Source: Escherichia phage BP9
Reading direction: 5' to 3' (one strand)
Length of the DNA: 64,000 nucleotides
Sequence record: PP488543.1
Below the pieces are notes generated by a model. It ran no database searches, had not been told where the DNA came from, and was given only the letters and a program-made list of their open reading frames with translations. Of the stretch, positions 56,938-63,146 are shown in pieces (within the stretch, counting starts at the first letter, position 1; every line of letters starts with the position of its first letter). The position numbers and the translations under genes are program-made.

Positions 56938-57288
56938 TCAGTAGATGTTTTGTTTAATCTCTATTCCAAACTTTTTAAACGAGTCAGCTGCAAGCATGAA
57001 TTTACGAGCCGCTGATGGATTAGAAGTATGCACGAAAATCTTCACGTTGTCAACTACAGGAGGCTTACCAAATACAAATTTTTCCTCCAACATAGATAGG
57101 CAATCGTACCCTTCGAATACCTCTCCAAGGTCGTTGTCCATATGCCACTCAGAAACGCGTCTGTAGAGCTTTTTATTATCGTTAATAAAATCCATAAACT
57201 CGGAGGAATTCTTTAGCCAAATAGCGTCTGGGAGCCCATAATTTGAAGGATCTCTCAGATCATCCAGCCACACAATCAACTTCTTCAT
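56938..57288 (-). CDS. hypothetical protein (116 aa)
   Basis: ATGA coupling to the RNA ligase-like gene; MKKLIVWLDDLRDP...VHTSNP. Confidence 0.45.
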   Translation of the reverse strand: MKKLIVWLDDLRDPSNYGLPDAIWLKNSSEFMDFINDNKKLYRRVSEWHMDNDLGEVFEGYDCLSMLEEKFVFGKPPVVDNVKIFVHTSNPSAARKFMLAADSFKKFGIEIKQNIY

Positions 57289-58220
57289 TGCATATAGTCC
57301 TCGTTGTGGAAATAGTGGTCAAGTATCTCACGGCGTTCCTGCTCCAGGAGGCAGTTCCACACATCTTCTGTGTAATTGCTACGAATGAAGTTTACCATGC
57401 CGTAAAACTCTTCATCAACACGTTTAAAGATATCATCATCCCAAATCTTCCAAGCTTTACCCCTCATTACGGCCTTCCGTGCCAGATAGTATGGAGACTT
57501 GATCTTCAGCTGCAGGTCGTAAGGGTAGTAAGGCTTACGGATCATATACCCTTCACCTCTTGTTTCTGCAGCTAATTCTTTTGCATAGCTGAACGGAATT
57601 TCACGCACAGTGTGAGGACGTTTTGCACCAAGGTATTTGGCAATCCCATCTAAAGCTGCTTCTGGTAGCATTATTCCAGAATCATTATATCTGCAACCTA
57701 TCAAATATGCGCCATGATCTTCTTGAACAATATGCGGATCTGAAGGGTGACAAATTTCAAACATGAATGTCATGTTTTCATTGCCCATAACCTTCTTGAT
57801 AAGATCTAAATTACCACATTGCTCCTGGATGGTTTCCTTTGCGAGGTTACAATATGGAGAATCAAGAGATCCGGTTGTTGAGAACAATAGTTCACCTTTA
57901 TGAGATGATACCACACCGAGGAATCCGTTCTTTTTCTCTACCGCAGTCACAAGTTTACTGTCCGGTAGGTTGGTGGAGTTTTCTCCCAAGTTAAACACTT
58001 TTGTGAAGGGCCATGCCACAACATTTCCTTCATTCCCGACAACAATGCCTCGGCACTCCAGTAAACGAGGGGACAAATGCCATAAATTGTTGTAAAATAC
58101 TTTTCTAGCATATTTATAGATCTTTAACCCGAGATCTGGGTAATATCTGCTGGTTACAAGACCTTTGTCAACTAGGTCGTCTGCATTAAAATACTTCATC
58201 ATACGTTCCTCATTTGTCAT
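57285..58220 (-). CDS. RNA ligase-like nucleotidyltransferase
   Basis: K-x-N-G (VEKKNGFLG), F-E (MTFMFEICH), EG motif (GEGYMIRKP), K-x-K (LKIKSP); distinct from the DNA ligase at 53531. Confidence 0.5.
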   Translation of the reverse strand: MTNEERMMKYFNADDLVDKGLVTSRYYPDLGLKIYKYARKVFYNNLWHLSPRLLECRGIVVGNEGNVVAWPFTKVFNLGENSTNLPDSKLVTAVEKKNGFLGVVSSHKGELLFSTTGSLDSPYCNLAKETIQEQCGNLDLIKKVMGNENMTFMFEICHPSDPHIVQEDHGAYLIGCRYNDSGIMLPEAALDGIAKYLGAKRPHTVREIPFSYAKELAAETRGEGYMIRKPYYPYDLQLKIKSPYYLARKAVMRGKAWKIWDDDIFKRVDEEFYGMVNFIRSNYTEDVWNCLLEQERREILDHYFHNEDYMQ

Positions 58221-58263
58221 TTTGTCAGTCTATCCTGCCACACAAATAACCTAGTGTCAACAC

Positions 58264-58292
58264 TTGAAATTAACAAAACAGTTAGGTATACT
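58264..58292 (+). promoter_or_regulatory. sigma70-like promoter (TTGAAA-17-TATACT) in divergent region
   Basis: Track ORF start at 58264 is the -35 TTG; real start at 58321. Confidence 0.45.
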
Positions 58293-58320
58293 ATCGTTGA
58301 AATTAAAACGGAGGGTCACT

Positions 58321-58728
58321 ATGTCTAAAATGCTATATATCGTGCGTGGTCTACCAGGGTCTGGCAAATCAACACTGGCAAATGCGCTATCTTTAGAGGG
58401 TCTGTATCCACATTTTGAGAACGACATGTTCTGGTACGACGATGATGGAAATTACAACTGGGATGCAAGTAAAGTCACACTTGCAGCAAAATGGTGCAAA
58501 GATAACGTAGAAGATATGATGCGTATGGGATACGACCGTATCGTGGTAAGTAATACGTTTACAAAAGAAAAATATGTGCAAAAATATATTGACATGGCAA
58601 TCAGTTATGGGTATAGTTATACCGTAATCGTGGTTGAAAACCGCCACGGTAATAAAAGCATTCATGCTTCAGACGAGGTTGTGGATCGTATGGAACGCCA
58701 ACTTAAAAACTGCATTAAACTTAAATGA
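58321..58728 (+). CDS. P-loop polynucleotide kinase-like protein
   Basis: ATG after GGAGGG; Walker A GLPGSGKST; 135 aa. Confidence 0.55.
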   Translation: MSKMLYIVRGLPGSGKSTLANALSLEGLYPHFENDMFWYDDDGNYNWDASKVTLAAKWCKDNVEDMMRMGYDRIVVSNTFTKEKYVQKYIDMAISYGYSYTVIVVENRHGNKSIHASDEVVDRMERQLKNCIKLK

Positions 58729-58735
58729 GGAATGT

Positions 58736-59290
58736 ATGAAATACTTTGTAACAAGCGACACACACTTTCTCCACCAGCGGGTCATGGAGTTTGATTCATG
58801 TCAAAAACACAGATCTCAGTATGATCACAATCTTGACAGTATGAATGCGGGAATCATCGCCGAGTGGAACTCTGTTGTGTCACCTGCAGACACTGTGTTC
58901 CACTTGGGGGATATTGCGTGCACTAATGATAAGAATATCAACAACTTACTTCCAGATATTCTAAATATGTTGAACGGACATATTATTCTTGTTCGTGGCA
59001 ACCATGACACAAGGACGACTGTCAGAATTATGAAAGAGTTCTATCATGAGGTTGTAGATTATTACGAGCTTCGCCACAACAAGAATTTGATCTGTATGAG
59101 CCATTACCAATTTGCAAAGTGGAACAGAAAGCATCACGGATCAGTCCAACTGTTCGGTCATGCTCACGGAACCACACAACAGTTGTTTGGCAGGCAGCTT
59201 GATGTCGGTTGGGATGTGTGGGGGAGACTCTTACCATTAGAAGAGGCATACCGTATTGCAATGAGTTTTGCTATTGACAGCGGGGAGTAA
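58736..59290 (+). CDS. calcineurin-type metallophosphoesterase
   Basis: SDTHF, HLGDIA, VRGNHD, GHAHG metallophosphatase motifs. Confidence 0.65.
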   Translation: MKYFVTSDTHFLHQRVMEFDSCQKHRSQYDHNLDSMNAGIIAEWNSVVSPADTVFHLGDIACTNDKNINNLLPDILNMLNGHIILVRGNHDTRTTVRIMKEFYHEVVDYYELRHNKNLICMSHYQFAKWNRKHHGSVQLFGHAHGTTQQLFGRQLDVGWDVWGRLLPLEEAYRIAMSFAIDSGE

Positions 59291-59337: not shown

Positions 59338-59688
59338 ATGAAAGATGGGGATAAGCTGCTATATCTTAAAGTCCCCCTTGAAATACTGTCTATGTCAAAA
59401 GTTTTGAATGACACAACTGGAGAGGTTGTTGTTCTTGACTTGTATGACAAGATTGTATACTGCTACCTGCACAACTGGTATAAGCTTGGAGGAAATTCAC
59501 GCTTCACACCCAGCACAAGGAAAATTGCAGCAGATGTTGGGATAAAGAAAACAAAAGCAGCAGCGTGCGTTAAAACTTTAGAGTGTGCAGGGGTGGTTGA
59601 AACATCCACACAAGGGAGAGGTAAAAGATGCACATTTTCCAAAGTTTTGCCGCCAGAAGAAGTTATTCGAATGTCAACAACTGGTTAG
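59338..59688 (+). CDS. putative HTH DNA-binding protein (116 aa)
   Basis: RBS AAGGAG; helix-turn-helix-like TRKIAADVGIKKTKAAACVKTLE. Confidence 0.45.
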   Translation: MKDGDKLLYLKVPLEILSMSKVLNDTTGEVVVLDLYDKIVYCYLHNWYKLGGNSRFTPSTRKIAADVGIKKTKAAACVKTLECAGVVETSTQGRGKRCTFSKVLPPEEVIRMSTTG

Positions 59689-59763
59689 ACCAGTAAAAAC
59701 TTAAATATCTGTACTATAAGGATTTGTATGTTTTATGTTCACCATGGAACAGAAACTATTAAC

Positions 59764-59823
59764 TGTCCGTCACGCGGACACATCTGTCCGTAATACGGAC
59801 ACTAACTGTCCGTGATACGGACA
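59764..59823. promoter_or_regulatory. three tandem palindromic operator-like sites TGTCCGT-N3/5-ACGGACA
   Basis: 59764-59780, 59785-59801, 59807-59823; centres 21-22 bp apart. Confidence 0.5.
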
Positions 59824-59960
59824 CATAAAGAATATAACTAAAATAACTAAATAATAAAAAATAAAAGATCTAGTACTTATGGTACTAAGTACATATACTT
59901 AACTTATGTAGAATATACTAGATCCTAAGTACCATGTTTTAAATTTATTACTTTCTATAG

Positions 59961-60180
59961 GTAGTGTCGGCCCTTCATTGGCACTCGCCTACGAGGGGCG
60001 AGATGCCGGGCCTCTATAGTGCACACAATAACAGAAGTGCATACATGCAGGACTGTTAACATGTGTGGGAGCGAAGCGATAGCGCAGGCCAAAGGCCGAG
60101 CACTAATGTGGACCACCGACGAAAGCTTGCCAGCGCCGGAAGGAGTCGGTTGAGAGCCTCCCGCGCGAGTTCGGATAAAG
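59961..60180 (+). ncRNA. GC-rich stem-rich segment: candidate structured RNA (class unknown)
   Basis: About 60% GC island in AT-rich DNA; multiple nested complementary segments; no ORF; strand not determined. Confidence 0.3.
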
Positions 60181-60327
60181 TTTATGTGTGGAAACTGACA
60201 AGAAGGTCCCTAAATCGCTCCACAGCTATATAAACTATACCAAGTAAGGCAATCGCACCAGTTTGATAGAAAAGCTCGTTACAAAGCGATACAGTGAGTT
60301 TTTCTATAACTTGAAGAGGAGGCTGCT

Positions 60328-60906
60328 ATGAGTTCACGCAAAGATGCCCGTGAAAAGATTGCAAAACGTTATCAGGATGAAGAACAGATGGAGAAAACTT
60401 TCAAGTGGAAGCCAGGTTTCCAGCGTAATCATTCTAACGCTCGTGATCGTAAGCATCCGGATAAGTGGTTAACACCGCCAAATGATGGCATGCAAGTCGG
60501 TGATGAGAAAGAGCTATCGCCTGGAAAAGATGGCAACTACATTCGCACTAAGGAAGCAGGTCCAAAGGATGACAGCTATCTTGTAGATAAGGTTCTTGAT
60601 GGTATTGATGTAGATGTTGACACTGCACGAAACCTTTTTCTTGGTTGGTATCGTACAGGGTTTTTCGACATCAAGGCTATTCGTCGTGTTTGTGATATTA
60701 AAAAGTCTGCCTATGATGATGACTCTCTACATCGCACTCTGAGACAATACTCAGAGAGATATGGTCATCCAGTTATCACTCTTGACGATATTAACGAAGT
60801 GCTGTATCATGCAGAGGTTGTTGCAGGTAGATTCGGTGATGCATATCTCGGTATTCTTTCTGCAAAAGATGAGGTAATGTTAAATAAAATTTACTATGAA
60901 CGCTGA
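60328..60906 (+). CDS. hypothetical protein (192 aa)
   Basis: RBS GAGGAGG upstream of ATG. Confidence 0.55.
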   Translation: MSSRKDAREKIAKRYQDEEQMEKTFKWKPGFQRNHSNARDRKHPDKWLTPPNDGMQVGDEKELSPGKDGNYIRTKEAGPKDDSYLVDKVLDGIDVDVDTARNLFLGWYRTGFFDIKAIRRVCDIKKSAYDDDSLHRTLRQYSERYGHPVITLDDINEVLYHAEVVAGRFGDAYLGILSAKDEVMLNKIYYER

Positions 60907-61181: not shown

Positions 61182-61424
61182 ATGTTTAAGGTTAAGCTCG
61201 TTTTTCGTTCCATGAATGAGGATTATTTAGAAGATGAAGGTGAATTTCGTGCACTGGATGATGCAATAGATTTTGCCAACGACTTAGCTTGTATGAATAC
61301 TGGTTATGGGTTATGCTGTTGGGATGGTGGTGTTCAGATCGGTGATAGCAAGATCTTCTACTTCTACCCTGAGCCTGATAACAAACAAATTAAGTATGTT
61401 TTATTTATTTGTGCTTTACAATGA
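61182..61424 (+). CDS. hypothetical acidic protein (80 aa)
   Basis: TTGACA-17-TAAGAT promoter-like upstream. Confidence 0.5.
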   Translation: MFKVKLVFRSMNEDYLEDEGEFRALDDAIDFANDLACMNTGYGLCCWDGGVQIGDSKIFYFYPEPDNKQIKYVLFICALQ

Positions 61425-61479
61425 GGTTGTTTTCGTGTATCATGATGAATATCCAATTTAAAGATGAATTTGATGGCTT

Positions 61480-61712
61480 TATCTCCGGATGCTTTGAAAC
61501 AGGGTTCGGAGAAGACTGAGTTCCCCTTAGAGGGCTTGATAGTGCACCACACTTAAAATGGTAGGGGGCAGCCAGCACATGACGATGTGACCCCAGCCAA
61601 CCTGTAACAAGGTCGAGCCGAAGCGCGGGTAATAGGCCTCTGGTAACCCACTTGTTGGGTCTTGCTGGTCCAGGACGCTGGACAAGTCGCAGGGAATATC
61701 TCCCTGCGGCGA
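61480..61712 (+). ncRNA. GC-rich stem-rich segment: candidate structured RNA or complex terminator
   Basis: Hairpins CGCAGGGA-ATAT-CTCCCTGCG, CCAG-GACG-CTGG, ACCCA-CTTGT-TGGGT; no ORF; lies upstream of the promoter at 61705. Confidence 0.3.
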
Positions 61713-61733
61713 ACTTGACAATCAGTACTTGCT
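61705..61733 (+). promoter_or_regulatory. sigma70-like promoter (TTGACA-17-TAAAAT)
   Basis: Upstream of 61772 gene. Confidence 0.45.
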
Positions 61734-61771
61734 ATGATAAAATCCACCTATCACGTGATAATGGAGGAAAC

Positions 61772-62206: not shown

Positions 62207-62281
62207 GCCCTGTTAGCTTAGTGGATAAAGCAGCGGCCTTCTAAGCCGTTGACACTGGTTCGAGTCCAGTACGGGGTGCCA
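62207..62281 (+). tRNA. tRNA-Arg (anticodon TCT)
   Basis: Hand-folded cloverleaf: acceptor GCCCTGT/ACGGGGT, D-stem GCTT/AAGC, anticodon loop CTTCTAA, T-loop TTCGAGT, encoded CCA. Confidence 0.7.
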
Positions 62282-62411
62282 AGTTCTTTTTAATGTAGCT
62301 TACTTTAGCAGAGTAAATCTTCGGCAAGTGGCGGTAACCACTTTACCGATACCTCATAGTTAGTGGTTAGAACACTAGCTATTTTAAAAAGAATTTAAAT
62401 ATTAGTATTTA

Positions 62412-62499
62412 GGTGAGTTAATTCCGTAGGGGTAGCGGGGCAGACTGTAAATCTGTTATCATTGCGATTCGGGTGGTTCGACTCCATCACTCACCACCA
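62412..62499 (+). tRNA. tRNA-Tyr (anticodon GTA), long variable arm
   Basis: Acceptor GGTGAGT/ACTCACC, anticodon loop CTGTAAA, T-loop TTCGACT, CCA encoded; D-arm irregular in hand fold. Confidence 0.55.
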
Positions 62500-62613
62500 A
62501 ATTTATATTTTTAGATGCATAAATCATACAGATAATGGCATTGATATTTATCGTCGTTTATACTAGTCACTAACTGCTCGAAAATCAGTGTCATTATCAG
62601 TATAATTTATAAA

Positions 62614-62704
62614 GGAGGGTAGGGAGCAATGGTGCTCAAGCGGTCTTGAAAACCGTCCCATTGAGGATGACTCGATGATGGTTCGATTCCATTACTCTCC
62701 GCCA
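62614..62704 (+). tRNA. tRNA-Ser (anticodon TGA), long variable arm
   Basis: Acceptor GGAGGGT/ACTCTCC, anticodon loop CTTGAAA, ~20-nt variable arm, T-loop TTCGATT, CCA encoded. Confidence 0.6.
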
Positions 62705-62802
62705 CATTGTTGACCTTGTAATTAAGCGAAAGCCGGAAGCAGAACCGGATTATCAAATGTTACAGTCGTCATCGCCGACTAGCAACATGGTCAACATACT
62801 GA

Positions 62803-62901
62803 GCTAGGTAAGCCCTTTGGCAAGGGCGAGGATTTTTAATCCTGAAAATAGACGAGGTAGTCGTTGAATACATAGGTGGTTCGATTCCACCGCCTAGCAC
62901 C
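62803..62901 (+). tRNA. aberrant tRNA-like element (99 nt; anticodon-loop TTT, oversized variable region)
   Basis: Acceptor GCTAGGT/GCCTAGC, D-arm GCCC/GGGC, loop TTTTTAA, T-arm GGTGG-TTCGATT-CCACC, but ~30 nt between anticodon stem and T-arm. Confidence 0.3.
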
Positions 62902-62906
62902 TTTTT

Positions 62907-62982
62907 GCTGATGTAGCACAATTGGTAGTGCAATTGATTTGTAATCAATAGGTTGCAGGTTCAAGTCCTGCCATCAGCACCA
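62907..62982 (+). tRNA. tRNA-Thr (anticodon TGT)
   Basis: Acceptor GCTGATG/CATCAGC, D-stem GCAC/GTGC, anticodon loop TTTGTAA, T-loop TTCAAGT, CCA encoded. Confidence 0.75.
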
Positions 62983-62983
62983 A

Positions 62984-63058
62984 GGCCCTGTAGCTGGAAG
63001 GTTCAAGCAAGCGACTCATAATCGCCAGACGGTGGTTCAATTCCACCCAGGGCCACCA
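62984..63058 (+). tRNA. tRNA-Met (anticodon CAT; Ile2 not excluded)
   Basis: Acceptor GGCCCTG/CAGGGCC, anticodon loop CTCATAA, T-loop TTCAATT, CCA encoded. Confidence 0.7.
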
Positions 63059-63069
63059 AATAGTAAATA

Positions 63070-63146
63070 CTCCGCGTAGCTCAGCTTGGTAGAGCGCCTG
63101 ATTTGGGATCAGGAGGTCGAGTGTTCGAATCACTCCGTGGAGACCA
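63070..63146 (+). tRNA. tRNA-Pro (anticodon TGG)
   Basis: Acceptor CTCCGCG/CGTGGAG, D-stem GCTC/GAGC, anticodon loop TTTGGGA, T-loop TTCGAAT, CCA encoded. Confidence 0.75.

Follow-up and report, generated by a model that had tools for sequence, protein, structure and literature searches.

What does a short GC-rich stretch do in AT-rich noncoding DNA of a virulent phage, between a group of palindromes and the next gene? This question is raised by an island at positions 59961-60180 of Escherichia phage BP9 (record PP488543.1), of which 64,000 nucleotides (64 kb; hereafter the window) were analyzed. The window is that of an rV5-like Vequintavirus. A preliminary description had called the island a candidate structured RNA, and our comparisons bear this out: in several independent lineages, compensatory changes have preserved its helices. 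The island is a real, evolutionarily conserved folded element outside the known RNA families, and its sequence favors action as RNA. We tentatively propose, with somewhat less than even confidence, that it is an origin-linked plus-strand RNA that would serve in cis as an element for priming, activation or control. The candidate RNA would then be the fourth, conserved part of a putative replication-origin module, after an initiator-like gene, phased repeats and an AT-rich stretch.

Composition and folding of the island

The GC content of the island is 57.7%, compared with 20% immediately 5' (59826-59955), 40% in 60181-60327 and 42.6% in the whole window, confirming the abrupt change that had been described. 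The plus-strand G skew across the island is +0.17 to +0.20. All four complementary pairs that had been named were located at exact coordinates: GGCACTCGCC (59980-59989) with GGCGAGATGCC (59997-60007); CACACA (60022-60027) with TGTGTG (60062-60067), around AACAG (60030-60034) and CTGTT (60053-60057); GGCC-AAA-GGCC (60087-60097); and CCGAC (within 60115-60120) with GTCGG (within 60145-60150). The placement of the island was also correct, as the palindromes lie at 59764-59823 and gene 60328 is real.

Folding energies were compared against dinucleotide shuffles. The whole island gave z = -2.7 on either strand. Its first module, M1, has a minimum free energy (MFE) of -28.1 kcal/mol (z = -3.7), and that structure makes up 91% of the ensemble. 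For the core domain alone, z was -1.4 (plus strand) and -0.6 (minus strand). The core was not exceptional against shuffled controls; its z is modest because shuffles of GC-rich sequence fold well too. Since the energy is only moderate, the decisive evidence is conservation and covariation in relatives.

The element consists of two 5' modules, a core and a 3' tail, described here on the plus strand. M1 (59964-60014) has a GGCCC/GGGCC closing helix, an asymmetric internal loop and a 10-bp bulged hairpin, GGCACUCGCC/GGCGAGAUGCC. M2 (60015-60061) is a variable, partly dispensable hairpin formed by AACAG and CUGUU (60030-60034/60053-60057); its tip is dispensable because it is taken away by an 18-nt deletion in rV5, C2 and Murica. 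The outer strand of M2, CACACA (60022-60027), is able to pair with UGUGUG (60062-60067), which is also the start of the core. The core (60062-60167, 106 nt) forms two nested three-way junctions with GNRA tetraloops. Helix P1 (60062-60071/60158-60167), in which UGUGUGGGAG pairs with CUCCCGCGCG, closes the junction that bears P2, P2b and P3. The preliminary description had found no pairing partner for the TGTGTGGG(AG) strand; this partner is CTCCCGCGCG at 60158-60167, and the pairing closes the core. P2 (60076-60083) is a short hairpin, GC[GAUA]GC, with a GAUA-type loop, and P2b (60087-60097) is present only in phages. An invariant junction, AAUGUGGA (60105-60112), lies between P2 and P3. P3 (60115-60120/60145-60150) opens into two small hairpins, P3a (60125-60134) and P3b (C60136-C60137 [GGAA] G60142-G60143), and is followed by the junction GAGAGC (60152-60157).

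The conserved 3' tail (60168-60327) reaches the ribosome-binding site (RBS) of the next gene. It contains a third UGUGUGG (60185-60191), a small hairpin, GCU-CCAC-AGC (60217-60226), and a 12-bp inverted repeat (60266-60277/60296-60307), which ends 8 nt before the RBS GAGGAGG (60316-60322) of gene 60328 (ORF77). Two conformers are nearly isoenergetic (-90.9 and -88.2 kcal/mol), and they differ in the UGUGUG strand that pairs with CACACA or with CUCCCGCGCG. When P1 is enforced, CACACA at 60022-60027 pairs with the third UGUGUG, that of the tail.

Conservation and covariation in phages and plasmids

Among phages, blastn matched the island only in Vequintavirus (118 records, 91-96% identity). In E. 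coli genomes, it matched unannotated DNA in small circular "plasmids". Further relatives were sought by exact 17-mer and 22-mer scans. Those of viral contigs gave one rV5-like contig (L029) and 18 chance matches in GC-rich DNA, and those of metagenome contigs gave two plasmid-like contigs (L030, L032), two rV5-like contigs (L033, L034) and one chance match (L031). Genome contigs gave nothing. A gapped motif scan of viral contigs yielded one chance match within a coding region (L048), and a related-locus search from a plasmid protein yielded nothing useful.

A covariance model built on nine phage sequences (R1) finds a single copy of the element in the window, on the plus strand, at 136 bits. 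It scores the type-1 (T1) cores of plasmids at 64-73 bits. Covariation was then assessed on a model-based alignment of 18 phage and plasmid sequences, with controls in which partners were slid by 1-3 columns and with 500 shuffles. Paired cells amounted to 94%, versus 33-47% with slid partners. Both sides of a pair were changed in 9 pairs, versus 3.0 ± 0.9 in shuffles, and none of the 500 shuffles attained 9, figures to be read in the light of an alignment that was fitted to the model and of few independent lineages and events. In the same alignment, P3 is 100% paired with both sides changed in four of six pairs, and P3a is 100% paired with both sides changed in two of three.

The T2, T4 and T5 cores of plasmids have the same layout with entirely different helix sequences. 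Because T2 cores are picked up only weakly, if at all, by models R1 and R2, the helices of these types were tabulated by hand; MAFFT alignments A2 and A3, in which P1 and the T2 helix were misaligned, were not used. Folded separately by MFE, the core types converge on one architecture. Across lineages, P3 reads ACCGAC/GUCGGU, GCUGCC/GGCAGC, GUCCGGAU/AUCCGGAC, CCGUCC/GGACGG or GCCGGA/UCCGGC, and P2 reads GC[GAUA]GC, UGC[GUCA]GCA, GUGC[GAA/GAUA/UAUA]GCAC, CAGUCC[GAAG]GGACUG or CUGCCC[GUAA]GGGCAG. The P3b loop is GGAA, GUAA or GGGA, all of which are GNRA loops. M1 is also found in plasmids L004 and L053, and in L004 two of its pairs are altered on both sides (GUCACUCUCC/GGAGAGAUGAC). The stem of the tail hairpin is GCU/AGC in the window, GUC/GAC in L029 and GCC/GGC in plasmids, and the 3' tail is alignable with the plasmid noncoding region. 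Taken over the phage, T1, T2, T4 and T5 lineages, compensatory changes are found in M1, P1, P2, P3, P3a and the tail hairpin.

Within the phages, compared with L050, a divergent rV5-like contig, identity is 92% in M1, 92.5% in the core, 67% in M2 and 79.5% in the 3' tail. It is 84-89% in the neighboring genes, 55% in the initiator gene and 48% in the repeats and AT-rich stretch, which are effectively unalignable. In L029 and L050, M1 and the core are more conserved (92%) than the flanking genes (84-89%).

An element outside the known RNA families

The preliminary description had seen a loose resemblance to RNase P RNA. Could the island be a degenerate or miniature RNase P RNA, or a member of another known family? 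The likeness is a visual impression of short common strings. Bacterial RNase P RNAs of types A and B are about 330-400 nt long, with a P4 pseudoknot and regions CR-I to CR-V, whereas this element is about 200 nt and has another architecture. At gathering thresholds, Rfam 15 finds only tRNAs in the whole window. Searched on both strands, the island matches no family; neither the RNase P model nor any other recognizes it even at E <= 10, where a 701-nt slice (59700-60400) gave in the island only chance matches far below threshold (rli43 and a small nucleolar RNA). The plasmid versions are likewise negative, since four plasmid loci searched at E <= 1 match no family, including C4. No model in Rfam 15 for transfer-messenger RNA (tmRNA), signal recognition particle (SRP)/4.5S RNA, 6S RNA, self-cleaving ribozymes, T-box or riboswitches comes near its gathering threshold, and ARAGORN did not find a tmRNA in the window. 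We give membership of a known family almost no likelihood.

Several other likenesses noticed by eye were tried and rejected. Those of CCGGAAGGAG to SRP domain IV, of GUGGACC to a T-box and of CUGAUG to a hammerhead ribozyme are backed by no model. A mimic of the CRISPR type I-E repeat (CCCGCGC...GGATAAA) and a T7-like promoter at CTATAGG are unconserved, the former in relatives, and tRNA-like modules have loops that are too small.

RNA, DNA or protein

Which strand folds, and in which molecule? In every lineage, P1 includes three to four U·G pairs, and this helix cannot form on the minus strand. At the base of P3, A-U or G-C pairs have become G·U (plus strand) in L029, L047, L050 and L053. The plus-strand loops are of the GNRA type (GAUA; GGAA/GUAA/GGGA; GUAA) or cUUCGg, and the plus strand gives the lower folding energy in every comparison. 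The G·U pairs, the GNRA and UUCG loops and the folding energies thus favor a plus-strand RNA. The same features bear on the idea that the structure acts as single-stranded DNA hairpins, either to signal priming or replisome loading, as plasmid ssi sites do, or to direct packaging, in which case satellites would have copied the signal. An origin-like module adjoins the element, most helices are Watson-Crick and hence foldable on either strand, and a terminase gene lies about 4.5 kb downstream in L050. In addition, satellites typically copy the cis-acting DNA sites of their helper, as P4 does with the cos site. However, P1 relies on a number of G·U(T) pairs, and such pairs are weak in DNA. Tetraloops of the GNRA and UUCG kinds are motifs of the RNA type, and a packaging site would need no compensatory changes that preserve hairpins. 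Action as DNA is therefore improbable in our estimate.

The island had also been said to contain no open reading frame (ORF). In the literal sense this was not correct, because mechanical ORFs of 31-56 amino acids overlap it; it holds in that the frame of rV5 ORF 78, the annotated one, has no coding signature. This frame (60063-60233 in the window) would encode a small basic protein, is annotated in rV5 (56 amino acids) and is open in most Vequintavirus variants. Nevertheless, its GTG start at 60063 lacks a Shine-Dalgarno sequence, and several frames are open on both strands, as expected of GC-rich DNA. Variable columns are split 20/22/21 over codon positions 1/2/3, so the third-position bias of a coding sequence is absent. 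Compensatory changes give non-conservative amino-acid changes, and plasmid types T2, T4 and T5 retain the fold and lose both the reading frame and the peptide. It is thus very improbable that the ORF 78 protein is the functional product.

An origin-like module in the phage

What surrounds the element on its 5' side? Upstream lies a gene for an initiator-like winged-helix protein (59338-59688, plus strand), the homolog of rV5 ORF 79. Its product matches PHROG 12838 "replication initiation protein" (E 5e-80), more weakly the initiator PHROGs 8102, 428 and 270, and also Pfam HTH_36 and DUF6945. The gene is named replication initiation protein in FV3, Murica and other records, and in the rV5 record ORF 79 is labeled "putative transcriptional regulator". 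Downstream of the gene come three 17-bp palindromes, TGTCCGTnnnnCGGACA (59764-59780, 59785-59801 and 59807-59823), spaced 21-22 bp from start to start; other Vequintavirus genomes have four copies. These palindromes had been taken for operators. They are better read as putative iterons, that is, initiator-binding repeats of a replication origin, because the upstream gene belongs to replication-initiator families, the phasing is 21-22 bp and a stretch of 20% GC adjoins them. This AT-rich stretch (59826-59955) contains nested inverted repeats (GATCTAGTA at 59867-59875 with TACTAGATC at 59916-59924, and ATGGTACTAAG at 59879-59889 with CTAAGTACCAT at 59925-59935), two GATC sites and a TAGAAT box (59909-59914) in common with plasmid L004. 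It is a candidate unwinding region, promoter region or both. Thus, the sequence features of an iteron-type origin found here are an initiator gene, identified by homology and annotation only, at least three phased repeats and an adjoining AT-rich element.

The constant position of the element after initiator-type repeats is directly supported by comparison. In every lineage, a winged-helix initiator-like gene is followed by its own 21-22 bp phased repeats, an AT-rich stretch and then the RNA element. L029 and L050 (rV5-like, 137 and 107 kb) encode as initiator a 143-amino-acid relative with 28% identity and have other palindromes, of the GATACAnnnnTGTATC type, and retain the flanking phosphoesterase gene, the RNA element and ORF77. 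By analogy with the O/ori regions of lambdoid phages, this is a specificity swap. ORF77 (60328-60906, plus strand) lies 160 nt downstream of the element, and tblastn matches of ORF77 and ORF79 are confined to Vequintavirus. Another phage has a 51%-identical homolog of ORF77 with no such element upstream, which indicates that the element travels with the initiator and the repeats and not with ORF77.

Plasmid-like elements that share the RNA domain

About 15 circular E. coli elements of 13.1-14.7 kb and one 39.6-kb trimer (NZ_CP043822.1) carry relatives of the island (for example NZ_CP020521.1, NZ_CP035869.1, CP148565.1, CP134895.1, NZ_CP178698.1, NZ_CP074841.1 and NZ_AP045055.1; the plasmid-like set comprises L004-L010, L030, L032, L038-L040 and L051-L056). 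They encode major head, tape-measure, Dit-like and tail-completion proteins, and an approximately 300-amino-acid HTH_36 Rep-like protein with weak matches to replication-initiator PHROGs. Their noncoding DNA amounts to 2.3-3.1 kb, and no terminase, portal or integrase was seen in their annotation. The island is the only DNA in common between one such plasmid and the 64-kb window, and the proteins encoded beside it in plasmids have no similarity to the phage genes around it. No sequenced phage has a relative of the plasmid capsid, and the tape-measure protein of the plasmids is closest to those of Vequintavirus, at a distance (25% identity). These elements look like plasmid-borne phage satellites, of which a literature search turned up no description.

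The order and orientation of parts are constant in the plasmids: their own type of repeat, three A-rich 11-13-mers, and a hairpin array that ends in the core (L005 1150-1540, L010 1250-1565, L053 2400-2800 and equivalents). The array consists of a variable number of different hairpins 5' of the core, each introduced by (A/C)UGUGUGGG. One accessory three-hairpin module, with a cUUCGg loop, shows extensive compensatory change between plasmids. The number and order of modules vary between plasmids, as though recombination at the UGUGUGG repeats had shuffled them. L051, a divergent plasmid, has two cores: at 1785-2840, five 22-bp phased repeats precede three copies of AAGACTCTATAAAG, after which the first core lies at about 2124-2212. 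The second, which is different, lies at about 2737-2840, beyond about 270 nt that consist purely of A/T. Furthermore, weak covariance-model matches (E about 0.02-0.04) lie 5' of the repeats in L038 (551-652), L039 (661-762) and L040 (546-647), each with a perfect closing helix, UGUGAGGGAA/UUUCCCACACA, around three hairpins. These may be distant paralogs of the core.

The presence of the domain in unrelated replicons could mean that it is an independent, trans-acting noncoding RNA, for instance a decoy or sponge directed at a host or defense factor, a self-cleaving or processing RNA, or a signal between helper phage and satellite. The domain moves self-contained between unrelated backbones, the variable hairpin modules, each after UGUGUGGG, resemble an array of processed units, and L051 has two core copies. 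The similarity of tape-measure proteins hints at a helper-satellite link, and the rV5-related phage ΦTE reportedly uses an RNA mimic against the ToxIN abortive-infection system. On the other hand, in the consensus scan no promoter or terminator delimits a discrete gene, and there is no similarity to known decoy, antitoxin or ribozyme families. A trans-acting RNA would also leave the constant position beside initiator repeats unexplained, and we consider it rather unlikely.

A bolder reading is that the core is a new self-folding mobile RNA domain, which the plasmid-like elements would carry so as to be replicated or activated by rV5-like virulent phages. If so, these would be the first satellites known for Vequintavirus, and the helper would be recognized by an RNA fold and not by a DNA site or a protein. 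This helper-satellite idea, which draws on one distant protein similarity and the common element, is quite doubtful. In a variant of it, the two-junction core with its invariant junction nucleotides would be a new ribozyme or ligand-binding RNA.

The plasmids also bear on whether the island might be a cis-regulatory leader or intercistronic RNA, riboswitch-like or protein-binding, which controls ORF77 and the co-directional early genes through the alternative M2 and P1 pairings and the hairpin just before the RBS. ORF77 begins 160 nt 3' of the element on its strand, and no terminator intervenes; the two near-isoenergetic conformers differ in the UGUGUG strand used, and 8 nt separate the 12-bp inverted repeat from the RBS. 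Folds that bind a ligand or a protein typically have GNRA loops and conserved unpaired nucleotides in their junctions. However, the downstream genes are completely different in phage and plasmids, the array is separated from the genes by strong promoters in plasmids, and the homolog of ORF77 in another phage is without the element. Scans recognized no expression platform, either terminator or RBS sequestration. Control of ORF77 is thus possible, though unlikely.

A model for a proposed origin RNA

How could an RNA work at an origin? In the reading that we tentatively prefer, rightward transcription would cross the AT-rich region, either from a sigma-70 type promoter, such as the one annotated upstream of the rV5 initiator gene, or from a start inside the AT-rich region itself. 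The G-rich nascent transcript would fold into M1 and the core. The folded RNA would then work in cis: it would either be the transcript that activates or primes the origin, or decide on the use of that transcript, and the competing pairings of UGUGUG (M2 form versus P1 form) could serve as a switch. The initiator and repeats would be the swappable part that gives specificity, and the RNA domain the constant part, found in the plasmid-like elements as well. The G-rich plus strand and the two near-isoenergetic conformers fit an origin RNA. In ColE1 and mitochondrial origins, a G-rich strand favors RNA-DNA hybrids.

Several observations weigh against an origin RNA. A strict consensus scan around the island revealed no sigma-70 promoter directly upstream and no intrinsic terminator downstream. 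No DnaA box (TTATCCACA, at most one mismatch) is present at 59355-60581; phage origins can do without them. The cumulative GC skew of the window is lowest near 58 kb, some 1.5 kb to the left of the putative origin repeats; this speaks for an origin here, but gene orientation switches at the same place (58240). The skew analysis in the rV5 genome paper did not locate an origin, and apart from that analysis the literature on rV5 small RNAs, the rV5 origin and satellites gave nothing relevant. As for the fold, the unexceptional energy of the core and the limits of the alignment, both given above, count here too. P1 is backed mostly by conservation and by length and wobble variation, with little classical covariation, and its inner pairs are weakened in L050. 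Finally, the strand call is not airtight for every module, because strong sigma-70 promoters lie 3' of the array in plasmids, one plasmid module has a terminator-like hairpin on the minus strand, and one has an A·C mismatch that is G·U on the minus strand.

The locus is a concrete candidate origin, with all parts named, for rV5-like phages, whose origin was never located and which are widely used in therapy cocktails and typing sets. The RNA domain is outside Rfam, and covariation defines it well enough for modeling, searching and mutating. As the sole sequence common to a virulent phage and to plasmids with capsid and tail genes, it also suggests an unrecognized relationship, or at least horizontal exchange of replicon parts, in E. 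coli.

Neighboring features

In rV5, the left neighbors of this region are genes for an RNA ligase, a kinase and a phosphoesterase, and the right neighbor is a tRNA cluster. The window has an RNA-repair-like set at 57285-59290, immediately to the left of the initiator gene, consisting of an RnlA-type RNA ligase (57285-58220, minus strand), an AAA_33 kinase-like protein (58321-58728) and a metallophosphoesterase (58736-59290). Its tRNA cluster (62207-63146) includes a 99-nt tRNA with a four-base anticodon, found by ARAGORN at 62803-62901 (tRNA-OTHER or tRNA-Lys in relatives), and a tRNA found by Rfam at 62412-62496 (tRNA-Tyr in relatives), which ARAGORN missed. The RNA-repair-like set and the tRNA genes suggest a region for countermeasures against tRNA damage.

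A second GC-rich (55-57%) noncoding island lies at 61450-61715 (plus strand), between an ORF75-like gene and a strong sigma-70-like promoter (61715-61743). It is preceded by a promoter-like site (61415-61443), matches no Rfam family and is 92-98% conserved. Its hairpin GUCCAG-GACG-CUGGAC (61668-61683) becomes GCUCAG...CUGAGC in a divergent relative, with two compensatory changes. This island probably forms a structured RNA too, one whose sequence has no relation to that of the first.

It was also observed that 18 "Campylobacter phage" records (MG0656xx, UNVERIFIED, host C. jejuni) are 91-95% identical to the E. coli Vequintavirus region; their host labels look doubtful for this reason.

Comparison with known systems

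Four kinds of systems resemble this locus in part. C4-type RNAs, such as CI RNA of P4 and those of P1, P7 and N15, are also small structured RNAs in operon leaders of phage-plasmids and satellites, where they are cut from a longer transcript and control the life cycle of the element. Here, by contrast, no C4 model matches in the phage or the plasmids, the phage is virulent, and target repeats complementary to the RNA, a mark of C4, were not identified. Orphan RNAs of the Breaker type (GOLLD, ROOL) have in common with the island a covariation-supported fold in phage intergenic DNA near tRNA clusters. The island differs from them in that it is much smaller (a core of about 106 nt, about 200 nt in all), has another architecture and matches no model.

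Iteron-type theta origins (RK2 oriV, pPS10, P1 oriR and lambda ori) resemble it in layout, as they have an initiator gene, repeats phased at about 22 bp and an AT-rich unwinding region. The specificity of their initiators and repeats can be exchanged, as it is between lambdoid phages. RK2 oriV, moreover, is described as ending in a GC-rich stretch (Helinski/Konieczny literature). The phage locus differs from these origins in its palindromic repeats and its lack of DnaA boxes, and in a 200-nt GC-rich element with hairpins kept by compensatory changes, which is undescribed there.

Such an element recalls a different class of origin. ColE1 RNA II, the R-loops of T4 oriF and oriG, and the mitochondrial LSP/CSB primer are structured or G-rich transcripts just 5' of the start of DNA synthesis, and their folding, including alternative conformers, decides priming. 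ColE1 has an antisense RNA, RNA I, and neither initiator nor iterons, whereas the phage locus has an initiator and repeats, and there is no sequence or model similarity to RNA II/RNAI. Nor is an RNase H site or primer site recognizable at the locus. On the origin reading, the RNA would work like ColE1 RNA II and other origin transcripts while standing outside their family and any family tested. If it does act there, it would link origins that use an initiator and iterons to origins that depend on RNA, which have so far been treated as distinct types.

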